Assembly (NCBI RefSeq): GCF_000186885.1
Contig: NC_014972.1
Coordinates: forward strand, 3,660,001-3,692,000
From: Desulfobulbus propionicus DSM 2032
GTDB lineage: Bacteria > Desulfobacterota > Desulfobulbia > Desulfobulbales > Desulfobulbaceae
Length of the DNA stretch: 32,000 nucleotides
Direction of reading: 5' to 3'
In this document: piece after piece, positions 239-31,922 of the stretch
Position numbering within the stretch: position 1 is the stretch's first letter
How the letters are laid out: every line of letters starts with the position of its first letter
Position numbers and translations under genes: made by a program
Notes under the pieces: generated by a model
What the model was told of the DNA's origin: nothing
Databases searched by the model: none
The model's input: only the letters and a program-made list of their open reading frames with translations

Positions 239-2566
239 ATGAAACTCGTTGAATTAATAGGCAAGACTCCTCTGGTCGAGTTGGCTCGGCTCAATCCCGC
301 CGCTGGCAAGGTCCAACTGCTGGGCAAACTCGAATCCCGCAATCCCGGGGGCTCAATCAAGGACCGGGTTGCCCTGTCCATGGTCGAAGCCGCCGAAAAA
401 AGCGGCGAACTGACCCGCGACAAGATCCTCCTCGAAGCCACCAGCGGCAATACCGGTATCGGCATGGCCATGGTGTGCGCGGCCAAACAGTACCGTTGCC
501 AGCTGATCATGCCGGAATCGGCGTCCATCGAGCGACGGCTGATCATGCAGGCCTACGGCGCGGAGATCATCCTCACTCCGGCCAAGCGGGCCACCGACGG
601 AGCGATCGAGAAGGCCTATGCCCTGGCCCGCGAACATCCTGACCGCTACTTTCTCGCCGACCAATTCAACAACCCCGCCAACTGGCAAGCCCATTACACC
701 TCGACCGCGCCAGAGATCTGGCAACAGACAGAGGGCAAGGTCACCGACATCATCGTCACCTTGGGCACCTCGGGCACGGCCATGGGACTGTCCCGCTGGT
801 TCCGCGACCACCATCCCGAGGTGCGGGTGATTGCCGTGGAACCTCATCCCGGCCACAAGATCCAGGGGCTGAAGAACATGAAGGAGTCCTACAAACCCGG
901 CATCTTCGACAAAACCCTGCCCCATGCCATCGTCAACGTGGCCGATGCGGATGCCTTTGCCACCGTTCGCCGCCTGGCCGCCGAGGAGGGCGTTTTTGCC
1001 GGCATGAGCAGCGGCGCGGCCATGTTTGTCGCCATGGAGCGGGCCCGGGAAATCGACGGGGGATGCATCGTCGTCATCCTGCCCGACGGCGGTGAACGCT
1101 ACCTGAGCACCCCACTGTTCAAACAGCCGGCCAAGAGCAAGGAAGAGGCGTCGCAGCTGCGGTTGTTCAACACCATGACCCGGAAAAAAGAGGTCTTCCA
1201 ACCGATTCGCGACAACCGAGTGACCCTCTATGCCTGTGGGCCGACCGCCGCCGAATCGCCCAACATCGCCCACTGCCGCCGCCTCATCGTTGCCGATCTC
1301 ATCAACCGCTCCCTCCTCGCCCAGGGGTACGCGGTCGAACTGTACATGAACTTCACCGATCTCGACGACAACACCATCACCGGCGCCATTGACGCCGGCG
1401 CTGACCTGCGCGAGTTCACGGGACGATACATCGACGAGTTCAAGCAGGCCATCGAGGCCCTCAACGTGCAGCAGGCCACCGGCTATCCGCTCGCCTCCGA
1501 GCATGTCGGCCACATGATCGAAATCGCCCACGACCTGATCCACAAAGGATATGCTTACGAGAAACTCGGGTCGATCTATTTCGATATTTCCAAATTCAAA
1601 CACTACGGCCGCCTCTCGGGAATCGACTTGAGCAAAATCAAGATCGGCCAGACCGTGGACCTCGACAACTACGAGAAGGACAACCCCCGCGACTTCACCC
1701 TGCTCAAGCGGTCCACCCTGGCGGAGCTGAAAAAGGGCATTTTCTACGAAACCGACTGGGGCAATATCCGCCCCGGCTGGCATATCGAGTGCTCGGCCAT
1801 GTCGACCAACTATCTCGGGGAAACCATCGACATCCACACCGCCAGCCAGGATCTGCTCTTTCCTCATCACGAAAACGAGATCGCCATCGCCGAGGCCCTG
1901 ACCGGCAAACCGCTGGCCAACTACTGGCTCCACTCCGGTCAACTGCTCATGGACGGCCGCAAAATGGCCAAGGAAACCGGCAACGTGGTCACCCTGCGCG
2001 AGGTGCTGGACAGGGGCTACGGCGGCCGGGAACTGCGATTCATGCTCCTGGGCGTCCATTACCGCAAACCGCTGCTCTTCTCCTTCAAGCGGCTGAACGC
2101 GGCACGCACCGCGCTGCGGCGAATCGACGAATATACCCGCAAACTCCTCTGTCTGCCGGCGGGACTGCCCCATCCCGAACTGGCCAGCTATGTCTCCGAG
2201 CTGGAGCAGCGGTTTCATGACGCGATCAACGATGATCTGAACATCTCCGGGGCCATCGGTGCCCTGTTCAACTTCATCAAACAGACCAATCCGGTGGTTC
2301 AAGCCCGGCAGCTGGACCGCGACCAGAAAAACGATGTGCTTGAGGCGTTACGGATGGTGAACACGGTGCTCGGGGTGCTCCGCCTGGAACATTGCCCCCT
2401 GACGCCCGAAATTGATCGGCTCATTCGCCAACGCGAACGCGCCCGGCAGCTCAAGGACTGGACTGCCGCCGATTCAGCCCGTGAAGAGCTGCTGCGCAAA
2501 GGGGTGACCATCGTCGACACCGCGGCAGGCCCCATATGGGAACAGATCACCGAGGAAGTGAAATAG
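239..2566 (+). CDS. fusion protein: PLP-dependent cysteine synthase (CysK/CysM family) N-terminal domain plus full-length cysteinyl-tRNA synthetase-like C-terminal domain
   Basis: One uninterrupted 775-aa frame; ATG 239 preferred over the in-frame GTG 230. The N-terminal ~300 aa carry cysteine synthase motifs: GGSIKDR (PLP lysine), TSGNTG, GTSGT and GERYLST. After a ~12-aa linker the CysRS-like part starts at LRLFNTMTRKKEVF and keeps CGPT, GWHIECSAM and FPHHENEIA (the Zn/cysteine pocket), plus the DDLN...LF anticodon-domain region and a C-terminal KDWxxAD tail. HIGH reads NIAH (1262-1273) and KMSKS reads KMAKE (1961-1975). Confidence 0.9.
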   Translation: MKLVELIGKTPLVELARLNPAAGKVQLLGKLESRNPGGSIKDRVALSMVEAAEKSGELTRDKILLEATSGNTGIGMAMVCAAKQYRCQLIMPESASIERRLIMQAYGAEIILTPAKRATDGAIEKAYALAREHPDRYFLADQFNNPANWQAHYTSTAPEIWQQTEGKVTDIIVTLGTSGTAMGLSRWFRDHHPEVRVIAVEPHPGHKIQGLKNMKESYKPGIFDKTLPHAIVNVADADAFATVRRLAAEEGVFAGMSSGAAMFVAMERAREIDGGCIVVILPDGGERYLSTPLFKQPAKSKEEASQLRLFNTMTRKKEVFQPIRDNRVTLYACGPTAAESPNIAHCRRLIVADLINRSLLAQGYAVELYMNFTDLDDNTITGAIDAGADLREFTGRYIDEFKQAIEALNVQQATGYPLASEHVGHMIEIAHDLIHKGYAYEKLGSIYFDISKFKHYGRLSGIDLSKIKIGQTVDLDNYEKDNPRDFTLLKRSTLAELKKGIFYETDWGNIRPGWHIECSAMSTNYLGETIDIHTASQDLLFPHHENEIAIAEALTGKPLANYWLHSGQLLMDGRKMAKETGNVVTLREVLDRGYGGRELRFMLLGVHYRKPLLFSFKRLNAARTALRRIDEYTRKLLCLPAGLPHPELASYVSELEQRFHDAINDDLNISGAIGALFNFIKQTNPVVQARQLDRDQKNDVLEALRMVNTVLGVLRLEHCPLTPEIDRLIRQRERARQLKDWTAADSAREELLRKGVTIVDTAAGPIWEQITEEVK

Positions 2567-6471: not shown

Positions 6472-7314
6472 TCAATACAACCGCAGCAATTTGTCCATCT
6501 CTTCCGGTTTCATGGAAAAGCTATGGGCCTCGGTCGGAAAGACGCGGTTTTCCACCTCGGCCTTGTACTGGGCAAGGGCCTCGATGACCGGGCCGTTGAT
6601 TTTGATATACTGCTTGACAAATTTGGGGGTAAACCGGTCGTACATGCCGACCAGGTCATGAATCACCAGGACCTGGCCGTCGCAGCCCGGTCCAGCGCCG
6701 ATACCGATGGTGGGGATGGAAATCTCGCGGGTGATGTGCTCGGCCAGGGGGGCGGGAATGGCCTCAAGGACGATGGAGAAGCATCCAGCCTCTTCAAGGG
6801 CACGGGCATCCTCGAGCAACTGTCGGGCCGCTTGGGCGCTCTTGCCCTGCACTTTGAAACCGCCGAGGCTGGTGGCGGTCTGCGGCGTCAAGCCGATATG
6901 GCCTTGCACCGGAATGCCGGCGTTGACGATGGCCGCCACGGTCGGCGCCATGGTCACGCCGCCCTCGATTTTGACCGCATCGGCCCGGCCCTCCTTGAGA
7001 ATGCGGGTGGCGTTGTTGATGGCCGCCGGAATCGAGCTGTTATAGGAGCCAAAGGGCATGTCGGTGATCACCAGGGCGCGTTCGACACCGCGCACCACCG
7101 CCTTGGTGTGGTGGATCATCTCTTCCATGGTCACCGAGACCGTGTCCGGATAGCCCAGCACCACCATGCCCAAACTGTCCCCCACCAACACGACGTCAAT
7201 CCCGGCTGCGTCCGCCGCCTTGGCCCAAGGATAGTCATAGGCGGTGATTTCGGCAATGGGTGTACCGTTTTTGCGATTTCTGAGGTCAGGGATGGTCAGC
7301 TTTTTCTGGTGCAT
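6472..7314 (-). CDS. panB: 3-methyl-2-oxobutanoate hydroxymethyltransferase (ketopantoate hydroxymethyltransferase)
   Basis: 280 aa from ATG 7314 (MHQKKLTIPDL). Full-length PanB-like sequence with TAYDY, VGDSLGMV.LGY, DMPFGSY, VKIEGG, GHIGLTPQ and IGIGAG. Confidence 0.95.
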   Translation of the reverse strand: MHQKKLTIPDLRNRKNGTPIAEITAYDYPWAKAADAAGIDVVLVGDSLGMVVLGYPDTVSVTMEEMIHHTKAVVRGVERALVITDMPFGSYNSSIPAAINNATRILKEGRADAVKIEGGVTMAPTVAAIVNAGIPVQGHIGLTPQTATSLGGFKVQGKSAQAARQLLEDARALEEAGCFSIVLEAIPAPLAEHITREISIPTIGIGAGPGCDGQVLVIHDLVGMYDRFTPKFVKQYIKINGPVIEALAQYKAEVENRVFPTEAHSFSMKPEEMDKLLRLY

Positions 7315-8805: not shown

Positions 8806-10224
8806 ATGAACGACGAATTTTTCAGCCATTTCCCCGACATTGCGGTCGGCAACCTGCTCGACTCGATCCCCCATGGAATTGCGGTGATCGACCGGGAACT
8901 GAAGATCGTGGTGATCAATGAATTTCTCGAAGCGCTCACCGGTCTTGCCCTGGCTGACGTCAAAGGGGTGTATATCGATTTTGTCCTTCGCTCCAACATT
9001 GCCCATCGCGGTCGGACCTTTCGCGAAGTTCTGGCCAGTGGCGAGCCGCTGGTGATCGAAGGAGACATTGTCAGTCGCGATCGCCGTAAGCTGCCGATGC
9101 AGTTCACCATCTCCCCCCTGCGCGGCAGCGGAGAGGAAACAGTCGGCCTGGTCATCGTGCTCGATGATCTATCAGCGGTGGTCGCCTCCGCCGGATTGGG
9201 CTCGGACCAGGACGTAACTGACTCGATCATCGGTCAGAGCCCCAAAATGCGCGAAGTTTTTGAATTGATCCCCCTCATGGCCCACACCGAGGCCTCGGTG
9301 CTGATCACCGGCGAGACCGGCACCGGCAAGGACAAGGTGGCCGAGGCCATCCACAAGCGCTCCAACCGGGCGGGCAAACCCTTCATCAAAATCAACTGCG
9401 GCGCCCTGCCCGAATCGTTGCTTGAATCCGAACTGTTCGGGTACGTCAAGGGCGCCTTCACCGGCGCGGTCAAAGACAAACCAGGCATGTTCCGCCTCGC
9501 CCAGGGCGGCACCCTGTTTCTCACCGAGATCGGCGACATGCCCCTGCCGCTCCAGGTCAAACTGCTGTCGGTCCTCGATGACCGGGAATTCTTTCCCCTG
9601 GGCGGCGATAAAAAAATCAAGGTCGATGTCCGCATCATCGCCGCGACCCACCGGCCCCTCAAACAGCGGGTGGCGGCCGGTGAGTTCCGCGAGGATCTTT
9701 ATTATCGGCTCAACGTTCTTCACCTCCACCTGCCGCCGCTGCGGGAACGGGAATCGGACACCCGCTTCCTGCTCAATCACTTCCTCCGGCTCTTTGCCGA
9801 GCGTTCTGGCAACAGCGCCAAGACCTTCAGCGACGAGGCCCTCCAACTCCTGATGGATTACCCGTATCCGGGCAATATCCGCGAGCTGCGCAACATCGTC
9901 GAGTACTGCGTCAACATCTGCCAGAATCACCGGATCGAGGTCGAGCATCTGCCCAAATACCTGTTCGCCCGGCTGACCCCGGTCACCCCACCCACACCGG
10001 TGACGCCCAGCCCGCAAGCCGTCGCGTCCCAACCGCAGGCTGTAGGCAAGGACTGGCTGGCCATCGAAAAGGAGCTGATCATCGACACTCTCACCCAGAC
10101 CCGGGGAAACCGTTCCAAGGCGGCGGAGATCCTCGGCTGGGGCCGCACCACGTTGTGGCGCAAACTCAAAACTCACGGCCTGGTGAGCTCCCAGGAGGCT
10201 GTCGCCGGCAAGGCGGAGGACTGA
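8806..10224 (+). CDS. sigma-54-dependent transcriptional activator (PAS sensor, AAA+ domain, Fis-type HTH)
   Basis: N-terminal PAS-like region (LLDSIPHGIAVIDRELKIVVIN...). AAA+ domain has Walker A GETGTGKD, GAFTGA, FREDLYYRLNV and PGNIRELRN. C-terminal HTH is GNRSKAAEILGWGRTTLWRKLK. Walker B reads TLFLTEIG instead of the usual TLFLDEIG. Confidence 0.92.
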   Translation: MNDEFFSHFPDIAVGNLLDSIPHGIAVIDRELKIVVINEFLEALTGLALADVKGVYIDFVLRSNIAHRGRTFREVLASGEPLVIEGDIVSRDRRKLPMQFTISPLRGSGEETVGLVIVLDDLSAVVASAGLGSDQDVTDSIIGQSPKMREVFELIPLMAHTEASVLITGETGTGKDKVAEAIHKRSNRAGKPFIKINCGALPESLLESELFGYVKGAFTGAVKDKPGMFRLAQGGTLFLTEIGDMPLPLQVKLLSVLDDREFFPLGGDKKIKVDVRIIAATHRPLKQRVAAGEFREDLYYRLNVLHLHLPPLRERESDTRFLLNHFLRLFAERSGNSAKTFSDEALQLLMDYPYPGNIRELRNIVEYCVNICQNHRIEVEHLPKYLFARLTPVTPPTPVTPSPQAVASQPQAVGKDWLAIEKELIIDTLTQTRGNRSKAAEILGWGRTTLWRKLKTHGLVSSQEAVAGKAED

Positions 10225-17880: not shown

Positions 17881-18068
17881 GTTGTAGTCGACCGCTCGCC
17901 TTTTTCCCGCTTATTTTTCACAGCATAGAAACTGGAACGGTCAGGTTTGACAGGCAGGCTCTTACTTTCCGGATGGGGCATCTGTTAACGGACAACAGGG
18001 ACAGAGGCCGCAAGGCCGAATCCACCCCAGGATAGCTCAAGACATAGCCGCTCGTGAGGAGTCGCCCG

Positions 18069-19727
18069 ATGACCACCGCAACCTTTGCCCGCTTTGGCCT
18101 GCATCCCGATTTGGTGCAGACCGTAACCGAACTCGGTTTTACCGATCCCACCCCCATTCAACAGGCCGCCATTCCGCTGCTGCTCGAAGGCCGCGACCTG
18201 ATCGGCCAGGCCCAGACCGGCACCGGCAAAACCGCTGCCTTTGGCCTCCCGCTGCTGCAACGGATCACACCCCGCCAACAGGGGGTCCAGGCCCTGGTCC
18301 TGGCGCCCACCCGTGAGTTGGCCATCCAGGTGGCCGAGGCCATCCAGCGATACGGCCAGCAGCGGGGGATTACCGTGCTGGCTGTGTATGGCGGCCAGGC
18401 CTATCAACAGCAGATCCGCAGTCTACGCCAGGGCGTCGAGGTGATCGTCGGCACCCCCGGCCGTCTGCTCGACCTCATGAATCAGGGCACGCTCGATCTG
18501 ACCACGGTGCGGACCGTGGTTCTTGACGAGGCCGACGAGATGCTGAGCATGGGTTTTGTCGAGGATATCGAATTGATCCTCGACCGCATTCCCGCCGAAC
18601 GTCAGACCATGCTCTTTTCCGCCACCATCTCCAAGCGGGTCCTGGGCCTGTCCGCCCGCTACCTGCGCGACCCGGAAACAGTGTCCATCACCCCCAAGCA
18701 GTTGACCGGCGCCACCATCGAACAGCGCTATTACCTGGTCAACCAGCAGGACAAGGTGGCGGCCCTGACCCGACTGTTCGAAATGGAGACCATCGATAGC
18801 GCCCTGATCTTCACCCGCACCCGAATTGGAACCGGCGAATTAGCCAACCAACTGACTTCACGAGGTTTCCCAGCCGAAGCTCTCAACGGTGACCTCAGCC
18901 AGGATGCCCGTATCCAGGTGTTGAACCGGTTTCGCAACGGCCAGGTCAAGGTCCTGGTGGCCACCGACGTGGCCGCACGCGGTCTGGACATCGACGACAT
19001 CTCCCACGTGTTCAACTTCGATCTGCCCGACGACCCCGAGGTCTATGTCCACCGGGTGGGTCGTACCGGTCGGGCTGGCCGGGAAGGGATCGCCATCTCC
19101 CTCCTCACCCCCAAGGACCGGTGGATTCTCCGCCGGATCGAGGACTATGCCCGCTACAAGCTGACCCGGGCCGAACTGCCGACCATCCAGCAGATCGAGA
19201 ACCATCGCCAGGCCCTGCTGATGGAGCAGTTGGAGGTGTGGATTCGCCGGGGCCGTTGCCGCCGGGAACGGGAAGTGGTGGAGATGCTGCTGCAAACCGG
19301 CCACCAGGCCGAGGATATCGCCGCCGCCGCCCTCAAGCTGGCCCGGGGCGAGGAAAAAAAACGGCCCATCGATCCGATCACGCCGATCAAGGAAGAGCAG
19401 TTCAATCCGCGTGAGCGCAAGAATGATCGCTTCCCACGTCGTGGCGGTCAGGCCGGGACAGGACCAGGGGGGCGACGGGGACACGACCGCGACAGGGACA
19501 TGGTGCCGCTCAGGCTCAATGTCGGCCGGGCCGATGGGGTTGGCGTCAACCATGTGGTGGCCTCGCTGGCCCATTATTCCGGGGTCGCTGCCGTTCAATT
19601 GGGCAAGATCCGGTTGGAAGCGGACCATACCTTGGTCGATGTGCCGGAGCCATTGGTCGGTCGCCTGCTTTCAAAAAACGGTGCGTACCGGATCGGCCGG
19701 CGCGCGGTGAACCTGGAGCGGGCCTGA
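18069..19727 (+). CDS. deaD: DEAD-box ATP-dependent RNA helicase with DbpA-type C-terminal RNA-binding domain (DeaD/CsdA-like)
   Basis: ATG 18069 has GAGGAG upstream. Q-motif region plus AQTGTGKT, PTRELA, DEAD, SAT and HRVGRTGRAG. An Arg/Gly-rich linker precedes the C-terminal VPLRLNVGRADGV...LVDVP DbpA-like domain. Confidence 0.93.
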   Translation: MTTATFARFGLHPDLVQTVTELGFTDPTPIQQAAIPLLLEGRDLIGQAQTGTGKTAAFGLPLLQRITPRQQGVQALVLAPTRELAIQVAEAIQRYGQQRGITVLAVYGGQAYQQQIRSLRQGVEVIVGTPGRLLDLMNQGTLDLTTVRTVVLDEADEMLSMGFVEDIELILDRIPAERQTMLFSATISKRVLGLSARYLRDPETVSITPKQLTGATIEQRYYLVNQQDKVAALTRLFEMETIDSALIFTRTRIGTGELANQLTSRGFPAEALNGDLSQDARIQVLNRFRNGQVKVLVATDVAARGLDIDDISHVFNFDLPDDPEVYVHRVGRTGRAGREGIAISLLTPKDRWILRRIEDYARYKLTRAELPTIQQIENHRQALLMEQLEVWIRRGRCRREREVVEMLLQTGHQAEDIAAAALKLARGEEKKRPIDPITPIKEEQFNPRERKNDRFPRRGGQAGTGPGGRRGHDRDRDMVPLRLNVGRADGVGVNHVVASLAHYSGVAAVQLGKIRLEADHTLVDVPEPLVGRLLSKNGAYRIGRRAVNLERA

Positions 19728-20532: not shown

Positions 20533-22488
20533 ATGGATATTCTGCTGCTGACCCTGCCCGTTCTCCTGGCCAGTGGTCTTGCCCCGCTCCTGACCGCCCG
20601 CTGGTTTCGTTGCTGCAAAGCCTTGCACACCACTCTCCTGAGCGCCGGTTGTCTCGGTGGCCTGTACAGCCTGTTCACCTTCTGGCAACACCCCGCGACC
20701 GCCACTTTTTCCTGTTCCTGGCTGCACACCTTTACCCTCTCCTTTGCCCTCGATTCGCTCGGGGCGGTCTTTCTGCTGCCCGTTTTCCTGCTCGTGCCGG
20801 TCATCTCCCTGTACGGCTACCATTACCTTGATCAGGCCACTCATTTCCGGCGAACAGCTCTCAGCCATTTCTTTTTCAGCCTGCTGACAATCGCCATGAT
20901 CCTGGTCACCCTTGCCGACAACATGGTGACCTTTGCCCTGGCGTGGGAATTGATGTCCCTTTCGTCTTTTGCCCTGGTGATGCATGACTGGGAAAAGGAG
21001 CAAACCCAGAGTGCCGGATATCTCTACCTGCTCTTCACCCAAACCGGCGCGCTCTGCATTTTCGCGGCCTTCGGCCTTGTGTTCCAGGCGACCGGTTCGC
21101 TTGCCTTTGCCCAGATGAGCTCCATCCCCCCAGGCATCAAACTCGCGGTCTTTTGCCTCACCTTGGCGGGGTTTGGCTCCAAGGCCGGCCTGTTTCCCCT
21201 CCATGTCTGGCTTCCCCATGCCCATCCGGCCGCTCCCAGCCATGTCTCGGCCCTGATGTCCGGGGTGATGATCAAGATGGGGATTTATGGCCTTGTTCGC
21301 TTCTATTTCCTCCTGGACAGCCCAACGCCGATTTTTGCCCGGACCATTCTCGTGCTCGGCATGATCTCCGGCCTGCTCGGCGTGGTGTACGCCCTCGGCA
21401 AACACGATCTCAAACGGCTCTTGGCCTACCACAGCATCGAAAACATCGGCATCATTCTTATCGGCTGCGGCCTGGGCATGCTGGGACTTGCCTCGGGCAA
21501 CCGGATCATGGCCGCCTTCGGGTTTGCCGGAGGCATACTGCACGTGCTCAATCACGCCCTGTTCAAATCCCTGCTTTTTCTCGGCGCCGGGTCCATTCTC
21601 CAGGCCACCGGTCTCCGCCATCTTGACCAGTTGGGCGGGCTGATGCGCACCATGCCGGTCACCGGCCGCACCTTTCTCACCGGCGCGGTGGCGATTTCCG
21701 GACTGCCTCCTCTGAACGGCTTCATCAGTGAATTTCTCATCTACTACGCCGCGTTTCAGGGGCTGGTATTGGGCGGCACCGACTTTCTCTTCTCCATGGC
21801 CGCGATCATCTCGTTGGCGCTCATCGGCGGCTTGGCCGCGGGCTGCTTCACCAAGGTCGTGGGGATTGTCCTGCTCGGCGAACCGCGCCACACCCACGGC
21901 CGAGAACAAGGCGATGCCGCCTTGTCCATGCGCGCGGCCATGGTCTTCCTCGCCCTCGTCTGCGTTCTCATTGGCCTGTGGCCGGAACCCTTTGTCCGTT
22001 TTGCCTTTGCAGGACTGGCCAGCCTCAAACCCTTTACAGCTATCCCGGGAGAGGTCAGCGGCACCATCGCGCACCATCTTGCCGTGGCCGGCCGTCTCTT
22101 TCTCGGACTGCTGATTGTCCTCATGGGGTGCCGTTGGCTATTGTACCGGAACAAGCCCGTCAGCCAAAGCGGCACCTGGGGCTGCGGCTTTACCCAGGCA
22201 ACCAGCCGCATCCAATACACCGGCACATCCTATGCCCGGAGCCTGGTCGAATTTCATCGCCCTTTGGTCAGGGTGCGGACCACCTACCCAGGCCTTGGCA
22301 AAATCTTCCCCGGCAGCGTCGCCTATGTCAGCAAAGTCGAGGATGTGGCCGAACTCGGTCTCCATTGCCTCCTCATCCGGCCACTGCTCAAGGGTGTGGA
22401 AAAACTGCGCTGGATTCAGCACGGCCACATTCAACTCTACATTGGCTATATTGTCCTCACCATCGCTGTCCTCCTGCTGGTGGTCTAA
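20533..22488 (+). CDS. ehrA: antiporter-like membrane subunit (NuoL / HyfB / HycC-like, proton-conducting transporter family) of an Ehr-type complex
   Basis: 651 aa and highly hydrophobic. Has the family core WELMSLSSF, GFGSKAGLFPLHVWLPHAHPAAPSHVSALMSGVMIKMG, LLAYHSIENIG and HALFKSLLFLGAGS. AGGTAA RBS precedes ATG 20533. The symbol follows my recollection of Geobacter 'Ech-hydrogenase-related' annotation, not a search. Confidence 0.88.
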   Translation: MDILLLTLPVLLASGLAPLLTARWFRCCKALHTTLLSAGCLGGLYSLFTFWQHPATATFSCSWLHTFTLSFALDSLGAVFLLPVFLLVPVISLYGYHYLDQATHFRRTALSHFFFSLLTIAMILVTLADNMVTFALAWELMSLSSFALVMHDWEKEQTQSAGYLYLLFTQTGALCIFAAFGLVFQATGSLAFAQMSSIPPGIKLAVFCLTLAGFGSKAGLFPLHVWLPHAHPAAPSHVSALMSGVMIKMGIYGLVRFYFLLDSPTPIFARTILVLGMISGLLGVVYALGKHDLKRLLAYHSIENIGIILIGCGLGMLGLASGNRIMAAFGFAGGILHVLNHALFKSLLFLGAGSILQATGLRHLDQLGGLMRTMPVTGRTFLTGAVAISGLPPLNGFISEFLIYYAAFQGLVLGGTDFLFSMAAIISLALIGGLAAGCFTKVVGIVLLGEPRHTHGREQGDAALSMRAAMVFLALVCVLIGLWPEPFVRFAFAGLASLKPFTAIPGEVSGTIAHHLAVAGRLFLGLLIVLMGCRWLLYRNKPVSQSGTWGCGFTQATSRIQYTGTSYARSLVEFHRPLVRVRTTYPGLGKIFPGSVAYVSKVEDVAELGLHCLLIRPLLKGVEKLRWIQHGHIQLYIGYIVLTIAVLLLVV

Positions 22489-22508
22489 GCCCATTCAAGG
22501 TCGCTGAT

Positions 22509-23423
22509 ATGGAATCCCTGTTCTCTTTTTTCCTGGCACTGCTGGTGGCGCCCCTGTTTCCCGGCATCATCCTCAAAACCAAGGCCTTGTTCGCCGGCAA
22601 AAAAGGGCCGCCGCTTCTGATCAAATACTACACCTTGGCAAAACTGCTGCGAAAAGGATCGGTCTACAGCACCAGCACCAGTTTTGTCTTTCGCCTCGGC
22701 CCCCCGATTGCCTGCGCCACCTCGCTCATGGCCCTGCTGTTCTTTCCCTTTGCCGGCATTCCGCCGCTGATCGCCTTCCATGGCGACGTGATCGTCCTGT
22801 TTTATCTTCTTGGTCTGGGAAGATTTTTTACCATCGTCGCCGCCCTGGACACGGCCTCGCCCTTTGAAGGCATGGGCGCGGCCCGCGAGGCCTTTTTCTC
22901 CACCCTTGCGGAAGGGACGATCTTTGTCATTCTGATTCTTTTTTTCCGCATGAGCGGCTCGCTCAGCCTGGCCGGATATTTCTCGGGCAGCCCTTCGATC
23001 TCGATTGCCGGCCCCCAGGGCGCCCTGCTGTTGCTGGTCATCGTGGCCTTATTCATGGTTCTGCTGGCCGAGAACTCGCGCGTGCCGGTGGACGATCCGG
23101 CGACCCATCTGGAACTGACCATGATCCACGAGGTGATGATCCTCGATCACAGCGGCCCTGACCTGGCTCTGATCGAACTGGGGGCCTTCTACAAGCTGTT
23201 CTTTTACGCCTCCTTTGTCGCCTGCCTGATCAAGCCGCTGTTCCCGGCCGGGCCGATCGTCAACACCCTGCTGTTTTACGGACTGCTGACCGCGGTCTAC
23301 CTGGCCATCGGCATTACCGAGTCAATCACTGCCCGGTTGAAGATGAACCTGGTTCCCAAGTACATCCTGACTTCCTTTGCCCTGGCCTTTTTCGCCATCA
23401 TCCTCACCATGGAGCTTGTGTGA
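22509..23423 (+). CDS. ehrB: NuoH / HyfC / HycD-like membrane subunit
   Basis: 304 aa from ATG 22509. Has the typical pattern: GPPLLIKYYTLAKLLRKG near the N-terminus, ASPFEGMGAAREA, and LAENSRVPVDDPATHLELTMIHEVMILDHSG (the NuoH/HycD cytoplasmic loop motif). The ORF-track extension back to 21978 overlaps ehrA and is rejected. Confidence 0.88.
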   Translation: MESLFSFFLALLVAPLFPGIILKTKALFAGKKGPPLLIKYYTLAKLLRKGSVYSTSTSFVFRLGPPIACATSLMALLFFPFAGIPPLIAFHGDVIVLFYLLGLGRFFTIVAALDTASPFEGMGAAREAFFSTLAEGTIFVILILFFRMSGSLSLAGYFSGSPSISIAGPQGALLLLVIVALFMVLLAENSRVPVDDPATHLELTMIHEVMILDHSGPDLALIELGAFYKLFFYASFVACLIKPLFPAGPIVNTLLFYGLLTAVYLAIGITESITARLKMNLVPKYILTSFALAFFAIILTMELV

Positions 23424-24076
23424 TGATCAACAGCACGGATGTCATCCTGGTCCTGATTCTCCTCTCGACCCTTCTGTCCCTGGGGTCCAGCCGCATGATG
23501 GCCCTGATCAAGATCATGGCCCTGCAGGGTGCCCTGGTTTCGCTCACCCCCATTTTCATTGAATCCCAGACGAAGTTGAGCAACAGCGGCATCCTCTTCT
23601 TCCAGCTGATGTTCCTGATCAAGGCCGTGCTCATACCCGGCCTGCTCTACATGGCCCTGACCCGAATCGCCATCAAGCGCGAGGTGGAGCCCCTGATCGG
23701 CTACCACGCCTCGCTCGCCGTGGGGCTCGGTCTCATCCTCCTTTCGACCTACATCACCCGCCATCTGGCGATCTCCCTCCAGGGCGATTATTTTCATCTG
23801 CTGATCACGGCGATCACCACTCTTGGCGGCGGCCTTTTTCTCATGATGAGCCGGACCAAGGCCCTCACCCAGGTCATCGGCTATCTGATGCTCGAAAACG
23901 GCATCTATCTGGTCGGCACCGCGCTCACCAAGCACCAGCACAACATCTATCTGGTCGAATTCGGCGTTCTGCTCGATCTGCTGGTCGGAGTGATGATCAT
24001 GGGCATCATCCTTCACAACATCAACCGTGCCTTTGACGACGTCGACACCACCTATCTCGAACAACTCAAGGATTGA
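23423..24076 (+). CDS. ehrC: HyfE-like small membrane subunit (NuoK-related)
   Basis: 217 aa with about 6-7 helices. GYLMLENGIYLVG resembles the NuoK/HyfE Glu-containing helix. ATG 23423 overlaps the ehrB stop codon by 1 nt (TGATG). Confidence 0.8.
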   Translation: MINSTDVILVLILLSTLLSLGSSRMMALIKIMALQGALVSLTPIFIESQTKLSNSGILFFQLMFLIKAVLIPGLLYMALTRIAIKREVEPLIGYHASLAVGLGLILLSTYITRHLAISLQGDYFHLLITAITTLGGGLFLMMSRTKALTQVIGYLMLENGIYLVGTALTKHQHNIYLVEFGVLLDLLVGVMIMGIILHNINRAFDDVDTTYLEQLKD

Positions 24077-24080
24077 TGCC

Positions 24081-25508
24081 ATGCTCGAATCCATTTTCTG
24101 TGTACCGCTGTTCACGGGTCTGATCGCCCTCTTTTTGCCGATCAAGCTGGGCCGAATCGTTCTGGTGGTCAGTGGCCTGCTCCATCTGCAGATGACCCTG
24201 CTCGCCTGGCTGACCTCCTTTACCCCCCTGCTGCCCGGTTATTTCGGCAGCGCCCCCTCCGGCATGCTGGTGCTGGTGGTCACGTCGTTCATCTTCCTGT
24301 GCATCGCTCCATACAGCGTGTTCTACATGCGTGAGCAGGAAATGCAGAGCGAACCGATCTTCATCGGCTGCATGCTGCTCTTTCTCGCGACCATGAGCAT
24401 GGCGGCCCTGGCCGAGCATCCGATCGTCTTCTGGATCGCTGTTGAAGCCACCACCCTGGTCAGCGCACCGCTGATCTTTATCAACCGTTCGAAAAAGGCC
24501 CTGGAGGCCACCTGGAAGTATGTGCTCATCTGTTCGGTGGGCATTGCCTTGGCCCTGCTCGGTTTCTTTTTCATCACCCTGTCCATGGAACAAGCCGATC
24601 TTGACGTGCCGCTAACCTTCTCCTCGCTCAACAGCGCCGCCCGCCAACTCGATCCGAGCTGGCTGAAGACCGGATTCATCTTCGTCCTCATCGGATTTGG
24701 CACCAAAATGGGTTTGGCGCCCATGCACACCTGGCTACCCGATGCCCACAGCGAGGCGCCCAGCCCTGCCTCGGCCCTGCTGTCTGGCGCGCTGCTCAAC
24801 TGTGCCTTCCTGGGCATCTACAAGGTGCACACCCTGATGGTCCTGGCCGGCTTGGGCGACTTCTCCGGATCGCTGCTCATCGGCTTCGGCTTGTTCTCCA
24901 TCCTGGTGGCCGGCATCTTTATCCTCAACCAGTCGGATTACAAACGGATGCTCGCCTATTCGAGCATCGAGAACATGGGCGTGATCGCCTTTGGCGTCGG
25001 CATCGGCGGCCTCGGCCTGTACGGGGCCATGCTCCATCTCATCCATCATTCGCTGCTCAAATCCTCGCTCTTTCTTTCCGCCGGCAATCTGGTGCTTGGC
25101 TTCGGCACCAAACTGGTGGCACGGTGCGGTGGCATGGTCAGCCTGCTGCCTCGAACCTTTGTCTCCTTTTTTGCCGGTTTTGTCGGCATCTCCGGATTGC
25201 CGCCCTTTGGCATCTTTCTCAGCGAATTGATGATCCTGCTCGGGGCCTTTCAAACCGGCCACCCCCTGGCTGCCGGGCTGTTCATCGCCACCCTGGTGCT
25301 GGTGCTCGCCGGTTTTGCCCGGATTGTCACCGCCATGTCCTTTAGCCCCCGCCAGGAAGAAGTTTTGGTCGAGGAGCAGACCCTGCGGATCATCCCGCCC
25401 CTTGCCCTGCTGCTGACTTCGGCCCTGCTCTGCGTCTGGATGCCCGAACCCCTTTTCCGGACCATCGTCAACACCATCGCGGTGATCGGAGGAACCATCC
25501 ATGGATAA
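24081..25508 (+). CDS. ehrD: antiporter-like membrane subunit (NuoN/NuoM / HyfF-like)
   Basis: 475 aa from ATG 24081, with AAGGA 8 nt upstream. Has WIAVEATTLVSA, GFGTKMGLAPMHTWLPDAHSEAPSPASALLSG, MLAYSSIENMG and HSLLKSSLFLSAGN. Confidence 0.88.
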   Translation: MLESIFCVPLFTGLIALFLPIKLGRIVLVVSGLLHLQMTLLAWLTSFTPLLPGYFGSAPSGMLVLVVTSFIFLCIAPYSVFYMREQEMQSEPIFIGCMLLFLATMSMAALAEHPIVFWIAVEATTLVSAPLIFINRSKKALEATWKYVLICSVGIALALLGFFFITLSMEQADLDVPLTFSSLNSAARQLDPSWLKTGFIFVLIGFGTKMGLAPMHTWLPDAHSEAPSPASALLSGALLNCAFLGIYKVHTLMVLAGLGDFSGSLLIGFGLFSILVAGIFILNQSDYKRMLAYSSIENMGVIAFGVGIGGLGLYGAMLHLIHHSLLKSSLFLSAGNLVLGFGTKLVARCGGMVSLLPRTFVSFFAGFVGISGLPPFGIFLSELMILLGAFQTGHPLAAGLFIATLVLVLAGFARIVTAMSFSPRQEEVLVEEQTLRIIPPLALLLTSALLCVWMPEPLFRTIVNTIAVIGGTIHG

Positions 25509-27012
25509 CCTGCTGCGGATCGACAACGGCGAACTGATCGAACGGCAGCGGATACCGCGCGTCGATTTCAGCCATTTCCTGCGCTTGCTGACCGACTTCG
25601 TCCATGCCAACGGCTACGTGGTCCAACTGTTTGCCTACCCGGAGGAAGGGCAGACTCGTCTGCTGGCCGTTGTCCGCAACAGCAACCTGTTTGTGCTCGA
25701 GACAACGGTTGACCGCGAGTTTCCTTCGTTGACCCTTGCCGGCGGCGCCAAATTCAGCATGTTTGAGCGGGAAATCGCCGAACAGTACGGTTTGATGCCG
25801 CTGGGCCACCCTTGGCTGAAAATGGTCCGCTACCACCCCAATTACACGGGACAGCCCGACGTCTTCGGCAACGACTACCAGCAGGACATCCCCGGCAACT
25901 ACCCGTATTTCCGGATCGAGGGCGAAGCCATCCACGAGGTCGGGGTTGGGCCGGTGCACGCCGGAATCATCGAACCGGGCCACTTTCGCTTCCAGTGCGC
26001 CGGCGAAGAGGTTCTCCATCTTGAGATTCAACTGGGCTACCAGCACCGGGGCCTTGAGCCCATGCTGACCACGGTGCCCCGCAAACGATTGCCCATCCTG
26101 TGCGAGGCCATCGCCGGGGATACCACCATCGGTCATACTCTCTGCTGCTGTCAAGCCATCGAGTCCCTGGCCGGCCTTTCGGTCGAACCCGGCGCCCGCA
26201 CGGTTCGCACCATTGCCCTTGAGCTGGAGCGAATCGCCAACCATATCGGCGACCTTGGCGCCCTCAGCGGCGACGTGGCCTTTAACCCGCCCGCAGCCTA
26301 TTTCGGCCGTATCCGCGGCGAATTCCTCAATCTGCTGCTCACCCTGTGCGGCAACCGTTTCGGCAAGAGCCTCATCCGGCCGGGCGGTGTCACCCAGCCG
26401 ATGGCGACGGAGCAACGGCAGATCATCCGCGCTAAAATCAAGGAACTGCGCAAGGAAATCATCCAGGTCTGCGATCTACTGTTCTCGGCCCATACGGTTC
26501 TGGCCCGGTTCGAGGACACCGGCACGGTCATCCGCAAGGTCGCCGATCAACTCGGCCTGGTGGGATATTGCGGCCGTGCCTCCGGCCTGGAATACGATGT
26601 GCGCGAATTTTTCCCCACCGAACGATACGCCGAGCTGCCCGCCAACAGCAACCGGGTGACCAACGGCGATGTGTACAGCCGGGCCATGGTCCGGCGCGAG
26701 GAAATCCTGCACGCGCTTGGCTTGATCGAAACCCTGCTGGCCGAACAGGAAGAGCCGCATCGGCCGGTTTGCTGGCAGGAGGGTGACCTTGCACCGGCGA
26801 GTTTCGTCGTGACCCTCAACGAAGGGTGGCGAGGCGAAGTCTCCCACTGCGTGCTGACCGATGCACACGGCAACATCCTGCGCTACAAGGTCAAGGACCC
26901 ATCCTTCCACAACTGGACAGGACTGGCCATGGCCCTGCGCAACCAGGAAATCTCGGATTTTCCGTTGTGTAACAAGAGCTTCAACCTCAGCTACTGCGGC
27001 TTTGATCTCTAG
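25501..27012 (+). CDS. ehrL: fused NuoC-NuoD / HyfG-HycE-like large subunit lacking the [NiFe] cysteine ligands
   Basis: 503 aa; the start overlaps the ehrD stop by 8 nt. The NuoC-like N-terminus has FEREIAEQYGL.PLGHP. The large-subunit core has VGPVHAGIIEPGHFRF, EIQLGYQHRG and RIANHIGDL. Where group-4 hydrogenases have E-R-x-C-G-x-C-x-x-x-H, this protein reads EAIAGDTTIGH (26104-26136). The C-terminus ends SFNLSYCGFDL with no DPCxxC motif and no cleavable extension. Confidence 0.88.
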   Translation: MDNLLRIDNGELIERQRIPRVDFSHFLRLLTDFVHANGYVVQLFAYPEEGQTRLLAVVRNSNLFVLETTVDREFPSLTLAGGAKFSMFEREIAEQYGLMPLGHPWLKMVRYHPNYTGQPDVFGNDYQQDIPGNYPYFRIEGEAIHEVGVGPVHAGIIEPGHFRFQCAGEEVLHLEIQLGYQHRGLEPMLTTVPRKRLPILCEAIAGDTTIGHTLCCCQAIESLAGLSVEPGARTVRTIALELERIANHIGDLGALSGDVAFNPPAAYFGRIRGEFLNLLLTLCGNRFGKSLIRPGGVTQPMATEQRQIIRAKIKELRKEIIQVCDLLFSAHTVLARFEDTGTVIRKVADQLGLVGYCGRASGLEYDVREFFPTERYAELPANSNRVTNGDVYSRAMVRREEILHALGLIETLLAEQEEPHRPVCWQEGDLAPASFVVTLNEGWRGEVSHCVLTDAHGNILRYKVKDPSFHNWTGLAMALRNQEISDFPLCNKSFNLSYCGFDL

Positions 27013-28056: not shown

Positions 28057-29280
28057 ATGGAAATTTACATTGCCAGGCAACCCATTTTCGACCGGCACAA
28101 ACGTCTGCATGCCTACGAGGTGTTGTACCGTTCCGGGATGGACAACACCTACCCAGCCAGCGTGGACAGCGACGAGGCAACGCATACCGTTCTGGCCCAT
28201 GTCCTGTTCAATATCGGGTTGGACGCCATCACAGGCAACCGCCTGGCCTTGATCAACTTCACTGAAAATCACCTGTTGCAGGGAACTCCCACCCAACTGC
28301 CGCGGACACGCTGCATTATCGAAATTCTCGAGTCGATCCTGCCCTCAGCGGAGGTCTTCACCGCCTGTCTGGAGTTAAAGCGCAAGGGATATACGCTTGC
28401 CCTGGACGACTTTGATTTCAATCGACGATCCGAGCAACTCATCCCCTATGTCGATATCGTCAAGGTTGATTTCCAGGGTATTGACCGCATGTTGCTGAAT
28501 GAAAACATGGTCCGGATGCGGCAGTATGCCGCAGTACAATGGCTTGCCGAAAAAATTGAAAGCCACGAGGACTTCACCTTGGCCCAATCCCTTGGTTTCA
28601 CCTACTTTCAAGGCTATTTTTTCAACAAGCCGGAGATCCTGAAAAACCGCAAGATCGACACCTCGAAAATCATTCTCCTCAATCTGCTGGCCGAGGTGTG
28701 CCGTCCGGAGATCAATCTGAAGAAAGTCGAACAAATGGTCGCGCCCGACGTGTCGCTCTCCTACAAGCTCCTTCGCTACATCAATTCGGTATATTATTCG
28801 TTGGTGCGTAAAGTCACTTCCATCCGCTATGCCCTGACCTATCTAGGAGAAAGCGGGACGCGGCAATTCGTTTCCCTGGCGGCAGCTTCGGAGATTTCCG
28901 CAGGCAAACCTTCGGAATTGATGCGCTTATCGATGGTCCGGGCGGAACTCTGCCGATTGCTGGCCGCTTCCCGCCCAAGTTCAACCGATGCTTCCCAGCT
29001 CTTTCTGCTTGGTCTTTTTTCGTTGCTGGACGCCATGCTCGACATGCCCATGGACGAGCTCACCGATCAACTGCCTCTCACCGCCGAGGTGAAGGCGGCC
29101 CTCAACGAGCGCAAGGGGCCGTTTGCCCCCTATCTCCAGGCGGTGACCACCTACGAACAAGGCGAATTCGAGGCCTGCACCGAGTTTCTGCGGATGCTCA
29201 ACATTGCCCCTGACATCATGATCAGCGCCTATTTCAGGGCCCTGGCCTGGGCCGATCTCTTTGACGCCAATCTTGCCTGA
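28057..29280 (+). CDS. EAL-domain plus HDOD-domain signalling protein (COG3434-type putative c-di-GMP phosphodiesterase)
   Basis: Has the MEIYIARQPIFD....YEVLYR start typical of this architecture. EAL catalytic-position residues are recognisable (EVL, INFTE, EILE, LDDFD, VKVD, AEKIE, FQGYFF). The C-terminal half has HDOD-like features (LSYKLLRYINS, YALTYLG, LLGLFSLLD). Confidence 0.85.
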   Translation: MEIYIARQPIFDRHKRLHAYEVLYRSGMDNTYPASVDSDEATHTVLAHVLFNIGLDAITGNRLALINFTENHLLQGTPTQLPRTRCIIEILESILPSAEVFTACLELKRKGYTLALDDFDFNRRSEQLIPYVDIVKVDFQGIDRMLLNENMVRMRQYAAVQWLAEKIESHEDFTLAQSLGFTYFQGYFFNKPEILKNRKIDTSKIILLNLLAEVCRPEINLKKVEQMVAPDVSLSYKLLRYINSVYYSLVRKVTSIRYALTYLGESGTRQFVSLAAASEISAGKPSELMRLSMVRAELCRLLAASRPSSTDASQLFLLGLFSLLDAMLDMPMDELTDQLPLTAEVKAALNERKGPFAPYLQAVTTYEQGEFEACTEFLRMLNIAPDIMISAYFRALAWADLFDANLA

Positions 29281-30522: not shown

Positions 30523-31458
30523 TCAGACAGCCTTTTCTCGTTTTTTGGTGTGCTCCAGAGTGGTCATGACCGTGGCCACCATGGAGGAGACATCGGCCAG
30601 GTTGGCGGGTAGAATCATGGTGTTGTTTTCCTTGGCCAGCTTGCCGAACTGGTCAAGGTACTTCTTGGCCACCTCAAGGTTGGCCGCATCCTGGCCGCCA
30701 GGCTCGCTCAAGGCCTCGGCAACCTGGCGAATTCCTTCGGCGGTGGCCGCCGCTACCTTGAGAATTTCCTGCGCCTGACCTTCCGCCTCGTTGATCCGTC
30801 GCATTTTTTCGCCTTCGGACCGGGCAATGGCCTCGGCCCGCTCGCCCTCGGCCCGGTTGATCATCGCCTGACGCTCCCCTTCGGACTTGGCGATTTCCGC
30901 CCGTTTCTCGCGTTCGGCCTTCATCTGCTTCTCCATGGCTTCAAGCACGCTGCGCGGCGGCTGAATGTCCTTGATCTCGTAACGCAATACCTTGACGCCC
31001 CAGTTCTGCGAGGCCTCGTCCAGTGCCTCGACCACCTGGCGATTCAGATTCTCCCGCGCCTCAAAGGTGTTGTCGAGGCTGATCTTGCCAATGGCCGAGC
31101 GCAGGCTGGTTTGCGCCAGCTGCGCCACGGCGAAATGGTAATTGTCGATGCCATAGGCGGAGAGTCGGGAATTGACCACCTGCAGATAAAGACAGCCGTC
31201 GATCTCCATGGAAACATTGTCGGCGGTGATGCAGGTTTGGGCCGGAATGTCGATCGACTCCTCCTTGAGGCTGCGTTTATAGGCCACCTTATCGAAAAAG
31301 GGGATCAAGATGTGAAAACCGGCCTCGAGAGTGGTGCGGTATTTGCCCAGCCGCTCGATCACATACTCATACTGCTGATCCACGACCACCGCGGTCTTGA
31401 CCAGGATCACGATCGCAAACACAACCAGGGCCACCACGCCGATGAGCACGTTATCCAT
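30523..31458 (-). CDS. SPFH/Band-7 (stomatin/prohibitin-like, QmcA/YbbK-type) membrane protein
   Basis: 311 aa from ATG 31458. An N-terminal membrane anchor is followed by VVVDQQYEYVIERLGKY and ITADNV..EIDG.LY.QV. The Glu/Ala/Arg-rich coiled coil KAEREKRAEIAKSEGERQA is typical of the family. Confidence 0.92.
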   Translation of the reverse strand: MDNVLIGVVALVVFAIVILVKTAVVVDQQYEYVIERLGKYRTTLEAGFHILIPFFDKVAYKRSLKEESIDIPAQTCITADNVSMEIDGCLYLQVVNSRLSAYGIDNYHFAVAQLAQTSLRSAIGKISLDNTFEARENLNRQVVEALDEASQNWGVKVLRYEIKDIQPPRSVLEAMEKQMKAEREKRAEIAKSEGERQAMINRAEGERAEAIARSEGEKMRRINEAEGQAQEILKVAAATAEGIRQVAEALSEPGGQDAANLEVAKKYLDQFGKLAKENNTMILPANLADVSSMVATVMTTLEHTKKREKAV

Positions 31459-31922
31459 CAGTGTTCTCCGTTTGTTTTCAGGGGTGCGACCTTGACGGTC
31501 AGGTTTTTCTTTTCCACAATTCGCACGACCGTTCCTTTGGTCACTGGCTCCTCGGAGGTGGCCTGCCAAAACGAACCGCCGAATTTTACCTTTCCTGCGG
31601 CCGGGGGCAGGATATCCTCGATCACCTCGCCAGTAGCATCCTCGGGCAGGCTATGTTCCATGGCATCGACCTCGAGGGTGCGGCCGAGAAAAATTTTTTT
31701 CACCGTCGATCGCAACAAAAGGAGGGCGAGGAGACTGGCGGCGAGAAAAACCAGCAGTTGGGTGGAAAGAGAGATCGGCAGCAGATAGACGGCCAGAGCC
31801 GCACACCAGGCGCCAATGCCGAAAAAAAACACGATCAGTCCCGGCAGGAGCAATTCGAGGGCAAAGAAGACGATACCGCTAAGAAACCACAGCAGAACCG
31901 GCGACAGGGAAAGCAGAACCAT
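31458..31922 (-). CDS. NfeD-family membrane protein (YbbJ-like partner of SPFH proteins)
   Basis: 154 aa. Three N-terminal hydrophobic helices precede a C-terminal OB-like soluble domain (GKVKFGGSFWQATSEEPVTKGTVVRIVEKKNLTVKV). Its stop overlaps the SPFH start by 1 nt, the classic nfeD-SPFH operon arrangement. Confidence 0.85.
   Translation of the reverse strand: MVLLSLSPVLLWFLSGIVFFALELLLPGLIVFFFGIGAWCAALAVYLLPISLSTQLLVFLAASLLALLLLRSTVKKIFLGRTLEVDAMEHSLPEDATGEVIEDILPPAAGKVKFGGSFWQATSEEPVTKGTVVRIVEKKNLTVKVAPLKTNGEH

Follow-up and report, generated by a model that had tools for sequence, protein, structure and literature searches.

A cysteine synthase fused to a probable pseudo-cysteinyl-tRNA synthetase in Desulfobulbus propionicus and other Desulfobulbales

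Results

One reading frame encodes a CysM-type synthase and a CysRS-like module

We analyzed a 32,000-nucleotide stretch of DNA from the sulfate reducer Desulfobulbus propionicus DSM 2032 (the window), with attention to a gene that encodes a CysM-type cysteine synthase joined in frame to a protein half resembling cysteinyl-tRNA synthetase (CysRS). Judging from the sites that are conserved among its orthologues, the CysRS-like half is probably a pseudo-synthetase that does not form cysteinyl-adenylate. All positions are those of the window, and residues are counted from the ATG at 239.

The gene (239-2566, forward strand) is a single open reading frame (ORF) of 775 amino acids plus the stop, without internal stops or frameshifts. 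A GTG at 230 is an alternative start; the database protein begins at the ATG at 239, and the ORF product is 100% identical to the annotated D. propionicus DSM 2032 protein. The original prediction was of an in-frame CysK/CysM-CysRS fusion that a stop or frameshift near 1120-1160 would abolish. The frame is continuous through this region, and the fusion is borne out by the ORF and by matches to Pfam (PALP, residues 6-283; tRNA-synt_1e, 320-622; DALR_2, 658-714; CysS_C, 721-761) and NCBIfam families. In NCBIfam, the protein scores above the cut-offs for cysKM (TIGR01136; 357 bits, cut-off 344.15) and cysS (TIGR00435; 402.9 bits, cut-off 340), and below those for the cysM equivalog (342.8 bits, cut-off 394.2) and the cysK equivalog (318.5 bits, cut-off 350.95). 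The predicted motifs were all found at their expected residues, and alignment to E. coli CysRS (PDB 1LI5/1U0B) confirmed that NIAH, NTIT and KMAKE occupy the positions of HIGH, KIIK and KMSKS, respectively. Because the identical 775-residue gene has been assembled on 13 independent contigs from several projects, and because the fusion is in frame in the examined Desulfobulbales loci other than truncated or broken contigs, we rejected a sequencing or assembly artefact or a frameshift as its origin.

The N-terminal half would be a catalytically competent cysteine synthase of the CysM type, dependent on pyridoxal phosphate (PLP). Its GTSGT phosphate loop (residues 176-180) is invariant in 103 fusions. 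The motif S[IV]K[DE]R, with the PLP lysine, is kept in all members of the subfamily described below, including those in which the CysRS site appears to be dead.

The two halves are separated by a short linker. The original prediction had noted a purine tract, GGAAGAGG, at 1141-1148 and, downstream, a CTG and a TTG at which a free CysRS-like protein might begin. We confirmed these positions: CTG 1157 (codon 307) and TTG 1163 (codon 309) are both in frame and 3' of the tract. Internal initiation was not conserved, as the aligned codons in relatives are mostly CTC or CTT and TTT or TTC, and a core resembling a Shine-Dalgarno sequence is present in only 19 of 62 relatives. No promoter-like site was found within the ORF. 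On these alignments, the tract and the two codons reflect a variable linker rich in lysine and glutamate. AlphaFold predicts both halves to be well folded (mean predicted local distance difference test score, pLDDT, of 88.4), with a disordered linker (pLDDT < 50 at residues 289-304), a predicted template-modelling score (pTM) of 0.60 and no confident interface between the domains. Given this pTM and the disordered linker, no fixed composite site is predicted, and the model neither supports nor excludes one.

The ATP site is not conserved, and the cysteine pocket, CP1 and anticodon module are

We collected relatives by an exhaustive search of 1.84 billion representative proteins and by a genome scan, with one genome per GTDB species, that used peptide patterns specific to the subfamily. 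At least 600 stretches matched in the scan, and 588 were confirmed. Results for individual loci refer to the best 80 of the at least 600 stretches; D. propionicus itself is outside these 80. Conservation was analyzed in a close set of 120 clusters with at least 83% identity to the window protein, and in a wide comparison of 72 full-length Desulfobulbales fusions with 91 canonical CysRS representatives. Residues marked Ec are in E. coli CysRS numbering.

The motifs of the ATP site vary even among close relatives. In the 120 clusters, the KMSKS position reads KMAGD (95 clusters), KMASD (5), KMAGE (5), KMADA (3), KMAKE (2) or others, and the HIGH position reads NLAH (99), NIAH (15), HLAH (5) or NIGH (1). 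The motifs of the cysteine pocket in the same clusters are nearly fixed, with CGPT and HHENE in 120 of 120 and GWHIEC in 119 of 120. Among wider orthologues, HIGH is replaced by NLAH, NLSL, NLLL, SLSL and others. Neither HxGH nor HxGN was present in any of the best 80 Desulfobulbales species, and the second lysine of KMSKS was likewise absent, with KMSAE, MMSAE, NMSSD and others in its place.

In the wide comparison, nine sites are conserved in canonical CysRS and variable in the fusions: Ec H37, G39, G201, G204, G226, D229, K266, K269 and S270. The canonical set was picked by regular expressions on HIGH, KMSKS and WHxEC, so its invariance at these motifs is partly by construction; G201, G204, G226 and D229 lay outside those expressions. 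The HIGH glycine (Ec G39) is kept in none of the 72 fusions, where S, A, L, P or I is found instead, and the site is at the 82nd percentile of variability. The site of Ec K269 is at the 97th percentile for the domain and is A, S or G in orthologues; Ec K266 is lysine in 49 of 72, and Ec D229 is D in 38 and N in 31. Few sites vary more than the catalytic lysine position, and the lysine of KMAKE in D. propionicus is therefore not a conserved feature. By this measure, every ATP-contacting element in the Desulfobulbales is without constraint.

The remainder of the CysRS-like half is strongly constrained. The residues of the zinc and cysteine pocket (Ec C28, G29, T68, D69, W205, H206, E208, C209, H234, H235 and E238) are invariant in all 72 fusions, as are the equivalents of Ec R423, R427, K430, W432, D436, R439, D451, G455 and W458 in the anticodon module. 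In CP1, 25 of 35 core sites are invariant and the entropy is 0.15-0.26 of that in canonical enzymes; CP1 is kept even in members in which the site appears to be dead. The residue that follows the arginine after HIGH is T, S or A in canonical enzymes and a second arginine in the subfamily (RR). Mean entropy is 0.86 for the CysRS-like half and 1.96 for the canonical set, and the half lies at a distance of 1.19 from canonical enzymes, compared to 1.00 among the canonical enzymes themselves, indicating no global acceleration. These conservation patterns show a CysRS-like half selected, as far as its sequence tells, for a role in which the cysteine pocket, CP1 and recognition of the anticodon are required and ATP is not. 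The original prediction had raised a paralogue with altered ATP motifs and a non-canonical role, and this idea is supported and sharpened: orthologues vary freely at HIGH, the glycine loop and KMSKS, and the pocket and anticodon domain do not change among them. Its other suggestion, that newly made cysteine is channelled into charging, is not supported in the Desulfobulbales because the adenylation machinery looks lost; moreover, no fixed interface is predicted.

Decayed ATP motifs, and the further decay of one related branch, are also what would be expected if the CysRS-like half were a relic, carried without function by an ordinary cysteine synthase. Such a passenger would hardly be constrained across a whole order, yet this half is 62-91% identical across the Desulfobulbales, similar to the CysM half, and no truncation of it was found in hundreds of species. 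With CP1, the pocket and the anticodon module fixed as described above, we consider a relic extremely unlikely.

Table 1. Features of the CysM/CysRS-like fusion gene in the window
Feature	Position	Strand	Details
Complete CysM-type/CysRS-like fusion ORF	239..2566	+	775 amino acids + stop
CysM-type PLP cysteine synthase half, residues 1-294	239..1120	+	PALP 237.5 bits; TIGR01136; nearest solved structures CysM 2jc3, 2bhs
PLP-binding lysine K41 (SIKDR)	359..361	+	Invariant in 103 fusions
TSGNTG substrate (asparagine) loop, residues 68-73	440..457	+	Invariant in 103 fusions
Linker, residues 295-306 (KQPAKSKEEASQ)	1121..1156	+	Variable, K/E-rich; differs among close relatives
Purine tract GGAAGAGG within linker	1141..1148	+	Not a conserved internal ribosome-binding site
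CysRS-like half, residues 307-775	1157..2563	+	tRNA-synt_1e 303 bits, DALR_2, CysS_C; CysK-coupled RR/KMSRS subfamily
CGPT, residues 333-336	1235..1246	+	Zinc ligand C333 (Ec C28), cysteine-binding G334; invariant 72/72 Desulfobulbales
NIAH at HIGH position, residues 342-345	1262..1273	+	Decayed ATP motif
R347-R348, RR subfamily signature	1277..1282	+	Invariant in subfamily, dead-site members included
NTIT at KIIK position, residues 378-381	1370..1381	+	Ec K73 = N in 66/72; Ec K76 variable
CP1 insertion, residues 421-512, including DFTLLKR and WGNIRP	1499..1774	+	Tightest constraint in CysRS-like half
GWHIEC, residues 513-518	1775..1792	+	W514, zinc ligand C518 (Ec W205, C209); W, H, E, C invariant 72/72
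HTASQDLL in place of canonical HGGGxDL ribose-binding glycine loop	1835..1858	+	Ec G226 = S/A, G227 = S
HHENE, residues 543-547	1865..1879	+	Zinc ligands H543, E547 (Ec H234, E238); invariant 72/72
KMAKE at KMSKS position, residues 575-579	1961..1975	+	Decayed
DALR_2 helical bundle, residues 658-714	2210..2380	+	Pfam 37.6 bits
C-terminal alpha/beta anticodon-binding module, residues 721-769	2399..2545	+	CysS_C E = 6e-8

The CysRS-like half belongs to a subfamily paired with CysM

The protein search recovered several clusters of fusions with 41-58% identity to the window protein. It also recovered seemingly stand-alone proteins of about 470 amino acids that have RR after HIGH, DFTLLKR in place of DFxLWK, and WGNVRP. 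We looked up four of the unfused members, and all four genes lie 2-4 nucleotides after, or overlap, a separate PALP gene of 275-305 codons; the pairing of CysM with the CysRS-like protein is therefore conserved, whether split or fused. The best 80 loci are all from Desulfobulbales, cable bacteria included, and in all of them the cysK part is directly upstream of the CysRS-like part. A profile search found further fusions in Thermosulfuriphilus, Ca. Desulfofervidaceae and other Thermodesulfobacteriota, and split pairs in Polyangia and in metagenome-assembled genomes (MAGs) assigned to the 'Deltaproteobacteria'.

The original prediction had called for an architecture search and a phylogeny of the CysRS part, and these showed the CysRS-like half to be part of a distinct, CysM-coupled subfamily. 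A distance tree sets the subfamily apart from canonical CysRS as a monophyletic group (100/100), in which the Desulfobulbales fusions form a clade (100/100) beside the basal fusions. Basal members have KMSRS in 115 of 118 cases, the HIGH glycine (as HxGL) in nearly all, and IHTSGxDL. From its sequence, this variant ATP site is compatible with retained catalysis. Because basal members conserve it, the loss of the ATP site is specific to the Desulfobulbales branch. TIGR00435 does not discriminate this RR/KMSRS subfamily from canonical CysRS.

Decay has gone further in a branch that includes Desulfovibrio ferrophilus. These proteins have lost the zinc ligands, GWHIEC, HHENE and KMSKS, and have kept RR, CP1, the C-terminal motif and the PLP lysine. 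Their matches to tRNA-synt_1e are only 63-88 bits, and those to PALP are 250-263 bits.

A fusion with the same order of parts was found in a Nanoarchaeota MAG (P0123, 768 amino acids). It has canonical motifs and nests among canonical CysRS in the tree, so it arose in an independent event; its sequence suggests that it may be a true bifunctional enzyme that makes and charges cysteine in a DPANN archaeon. The representative search contained other unusual architectures as well (P0140, 995 amino acids; P0166, 960; P0149, 858; P0182, 711). Among these are long proteins with a C-terminal CysK-like domain, or CysRS with N-terminal extensions of 220-390 residues.

Gene neighbourhood

In many Desulfobulbales (loci L009-L088), the fusion is preceded by amtB, PII, glnD, glnA and dciA, a cluster for nitrogen regulation that has no evident connection with cysteine. 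In most Desulfobulbales loci (L017, L019, L022, L031, L074 and others), an ordinary tRNA-Arg(UCU) gene lies directly downstream, approximately 50-250 nucleotides 3' of the fusion stop. D. propionicus and a few relatives lack this tRNA-Arg, which is absent from 2567-2700, and no tRNA gene was found in the window. In D. propionicus, the fusion is followed by a polysaccharide-type cluster on the opposite strand (Bac_transf, an epimerase and two GT4 glycosyltransferases), and synteny may have been broken here or a segment inserted. Overall, the neighbourhood was uninformative as to function.

Two split pairs have neighbours of possible relevance, although both are single cases below curated cut-offs. 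In L092, the gene after the CysRS-like gene encodes a MoeB/ThiF-family adenylyltransferase (6553-7293), which recalls the CysM pathways that depend on sulfur carriers. The corresponding gene in L095, from a Polyangia MAG, encodes a hexapeptide-repeat acyltransferase (9442-10011) with a weak cysE match.

Elsewhere in the window, several consecutive genes for a membrane complex at 20533-27012 (forward strand), with two Proton_antipo_M, NADHdh and Complex1_49kDa, suggest a module like Mrp/Hyf or complex I. Close to them are genes for a DEAD-box helicase of the DeaD type (18054-19727), for an EAL-HDOD protein (28057-29280) and, on the reverse strand, for an SPFH/Band 7 protein (30523-31569). Antisense to the fusion, an ORF of 649 amino acids (353-2302, reverse strand) looks like a shadow ORF of the G+C-rich coding region.

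Discussion

A proposed cysteine synthase with a built-in sensor

We suggest, with somewhat less than even confidence, that the fusion is a two-module protein in which a CysM-type synthase is tied to a pseudo-synthetase that senses the level of cysteine and the status of tRNA-Cys. The C-terminal module would derive from a subfamily of CysRS whose genetic coupling to a CysM-like enzyme predates the Desulfobulbales, with the two genes adjacent and translationally coupled in Polyangia and other 'delta' MAGs, and fused in Thermodesulfobacteriota. In the Desulfobulbales, the ATP site appears to be no longer under selection, and formation of cysteinyl-adenylate has probably been lost. The zinc/thiolate pocket, CP1 (which would lie over the acceptor end) and the anticodon module appear to have been kept under strict selection, and for that reason binding of tRNA-Cys has most likely been kept as well. 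The module would bind this tRNA in its usual orientation and, along with it, either cysteine or the cysteinyl end of Cys-tRNA-Cys. By analogy with known pseudo-synthetases, such a sensor would tie cysteine synthase activity to the cysteine level and to the charging state of tRNA-Cys. In that case, we predict that a separate canonical CysRS, encoded elsewhere in the genome, carries out housekeeping charging.

Several observations weigh against this proposal. The regulatory mechanism is an analogy, the predicted coupling has no structural support in the AlphaFold model, the gene context lends no support to a sensor role, and the contrast with canonical enzymes is partly circular at the motifs used to select them. 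No canonical cysS has been demonstrated in D. propionicus or in any Desulfobulbales genome: a tblastn search with E. coli CysRS matched only the fusion within 10 kb on either side in the 80 loci, and a protein search that started from the canonical representative closest to the subfamily gave matches from Acidobacteriota, Omnitrophica and Coatesbacteria. In a genome with no other cysS and no SepRS/SepCysS, the fusion must charge tRNA-Cys. Some active class I synthetases lack the second lysine of KMSKS, as in human TrpRS, which has KMSAS. In addition, E. coli CysRS with K266A/K269A mutations reportedly remained able to sustain cell-free translation (PMC5660078). Given these two precedents, the loss of motifs is not proof of inactivity.

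Much of this evidence would also be accounted for if the fusion were an active bifunctional enzyme with an unorthodox ATP site, in which, for example, an arginine of RR replaces the KMSKS lysine, and which serves as the housekeeping and possibly the only CysRS of the Desulfobulbales. The score above the TIGR00435 cut-off would be expected of such an enzyme. So would a full-length CysRS-like half with an invariant cysteine pocket, CP1 and anticodon module, and its presence, across hundreds of species of Desulfobulbales, amid conserved housekeeping genes from dciA to tRNA-Arg. The conserved KMSRS/HxGL site of the basal relatives may itself be active. However, all four ATP-contacting elements vary freely among close relatives, including the HIGH glycine, the K269 site and D229 (asparagine in about half of the fusions). 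RR is also kept in members that lack the zinc ligands, so it is not specifically a compensation for the ATP site. On balance, we find an active charging enzyme quite improbable.

The main alternative to a sensor is a tRNA-dependent catalyst. Here the CysRS-like half would bind ready-made Cys-tRNA-Cys, and the PLP domain would modify the tRNA-borne cysteine, or the cysteine would be transferred, for example to give a persulfide or a thioether. Cyclodipeptide synthases offer a model, being class I synthetase-like proteins that have lost the ATP motifs and use aminoacyl-tRNA. A pocket, CP1 and an anticodon module without an ATP site would suit a binder of Cys-tRNA-Cys, and pairing with a PLP enzyme is obligate across phyla. 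Enzymes of the CysM type, to which the PLP half belongs, moreover have a more open active site and take bulky nucleophiles, as in Mycobacterium tuberculosis CysM with CysO. However, the gene context suggests neither an acceptor nor a product, the AlphaFold model does not fix the geometry of one active site relative to the other, and the D. ferrophilus branch keeps the rest of the protein without the cysteine pocket. We regard this alternative as unlikely.

A related possibility is that the PLP half acts like SepCysS and converts O-phosphoseryl- or seryl-tRNA-Cys into Cys-tRNA-Cys, with the CysRS-like half holding the tRNA. This would explain why a beta-replacement PLP enzyme is coupled to a module that binds tRNA-Cys and lacks an ATP site. 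It would require a mischarging enzyme, and in a survey of bacteria SepRS was confined to Parcubacteria and Chloroflexi (PMC5424206). No supporting genes are nearby, and the zinc/thiolate pocket is retained in the CysRS-like half rather than beside the PLP site. This scheme is, in our judgment, very unlikely.

Implications and annotation

In broader terms, we think it possible, but short of probable, that the CysRS-like half is a synthetase module retired from catalysis and dedicated to reading one tRNA, tRNA-Cys, whether charged or not. The tRNA would serve either to control cysteine synthesis at the level of the protein or as a substrate for new PLP-based sulfur chemistry on Cys-tRNA-Cys. On this view, the paired CysM and CysRS-like proteins, split or fused, would form a two-component system that is widespread in Thermodesulfobacteriota and Myxococcota and has gone unrecognised. 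If a sensor is correct, the fusion would be a bacterial pseudo-synthetase specific for a single tRNA and directly connected to the enzyme that produces its cognate amino acid, and a counterpart at the protein level of T-box or stringent sensing. The graded series from a canonical fusion (Nanoarchaeota), through a KMSRS variant, to loss of the ATP site (Desulfobulbales) and then also of the cysteine pocket (D. ferrophilus) amounts to a natural experiment on the retirement of a synthetase.

Annotation of the family is inconsistent (P0016, P0029, P0383 and P0402), with 'cysteine synthase' used for D. propionicus and D. ferrophilus and 'cysteine--tRNA ligase' for entries from MAGs, JGI and UniRef. 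Because the fusion passes the TIGR00435 cut-off, pipelines may take it for the housekeeping CysRS; this would concern hundreds of Desulfobulbales genomes, including those of cable bacteria. The sequences are already public, and synthetase-like paralogues and pseudo-synthetases are known; we found no description of the fusion or of the CysM-coupled subfamily in the literature searched.

Comparison with known systems

The two halves resemble well-characterized enzymes. The N-terminal half aligns end to end with CysM (O-acetylserine sulfhydrylase B; PDB 2JC3, 2BHS; E = 2e-80) and shares with it the PLP lysine and the asparagine and phosphate loops; it differs in scoring below the CysM equivalog cut-off and in carrying a synthetase-like extension of 470 residues. 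The C-terminal half shares the fold and domain order of canonical CysRS (E. coli, PDB 1LI5/1U0B; TIGR00435) over 460 residues (E = 6e-83), together with the zinc ligands and the cysteine-binding and anticodon-module residues. Unlike canonical enzymes, the fusion orthologues have no conserved HIGH, GGGxD loop or KMSKS, and Ec W184 of DFxLWK is fixed as leucine. The fusion subfamily is further distinguished by the extra arginine after HIGH, the unusually constrained CP1, the constant CysM partner and its separate clade. The Nanoarchaeota fusion P0123 has the same order of PALP and CysRS and differs by its canonical HIGN, KMSKS and DFVLWK.

Known relatives of CysRS with other functions did not account for the fusion. 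MshC, the mycothiol cysteine ligase that the original prediction had offered as an analogy, is a CysRS paralogue with the zinc/cysteine pocket. However, MshC keeps the ATP motifs and lacks an anticodon domain (PDB 3c8z covers residues 2-335 only), whereas the fusion has an anticodon domain and scores 199.3 bits against the TIGR03447 cut-off of 485.1, and we rejected this identity. CysRS*, a second CysRS-type gene of Desulfobacterales in the 'delta-proteobacteria', has no anticodon-binding domain and is linked to selC*/selB* (Mukai et al., PMC5389517). This identity was rejected as well, since the fusion has the domain, the window has no tRNA, and the only neighbouring tRNA in relatives is the ordinary tRNA-Arg(UCU). 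The cysteine persulfide synthase (CARS) side activity of E. coli CysRS maps to K73, K76, K266 and K269 (Akaike et al., PMC5660078). CysRS, PLP and the chemistry of cysteine sulfur are involved in both cases, but the PLP of the fusion belongs to a separate CysM domain. The fusion has N378 and T381 at the first two of these positions, and the four lysines are not conserved in its orthologues (Table 1 and above), so this analogy, also raised in the original prediction, fails for a CARS-type enzyme.

The closest parallels may be pseudo-synthetases. HisZ, a HisRS paralogue that does not aminoacylate, has kept its amino-acid pocket and is the regulatory subunit of HisG (ATP phosphoribosyltransferase). 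Like HisZ, the fusion would couple a non-charging synthetase paralogue physically to an enzyme that makes the cognate amino acid. HisZ differs in being class II, in lacking an anticodon-binding domain and in acting on the first step of its pathway, whereas the fusion concerns the last step and its regulation is a proposal. The HisRS-like domain of GCN2 is catalytically inactive, is fused to an effector kinase and binds uncharged tRNA as a signal. GCN2 is eukaryotic, has a kinase as effector and is not specific for a single tRNA, whereas the fusion keeps a specific anticodon module and an amino-acid pocket. The features of pseudo-synthetases found in the fusion are the loss of catalytic motifs, the retention of ligand sites and the physical coupling to an effector enzyme.

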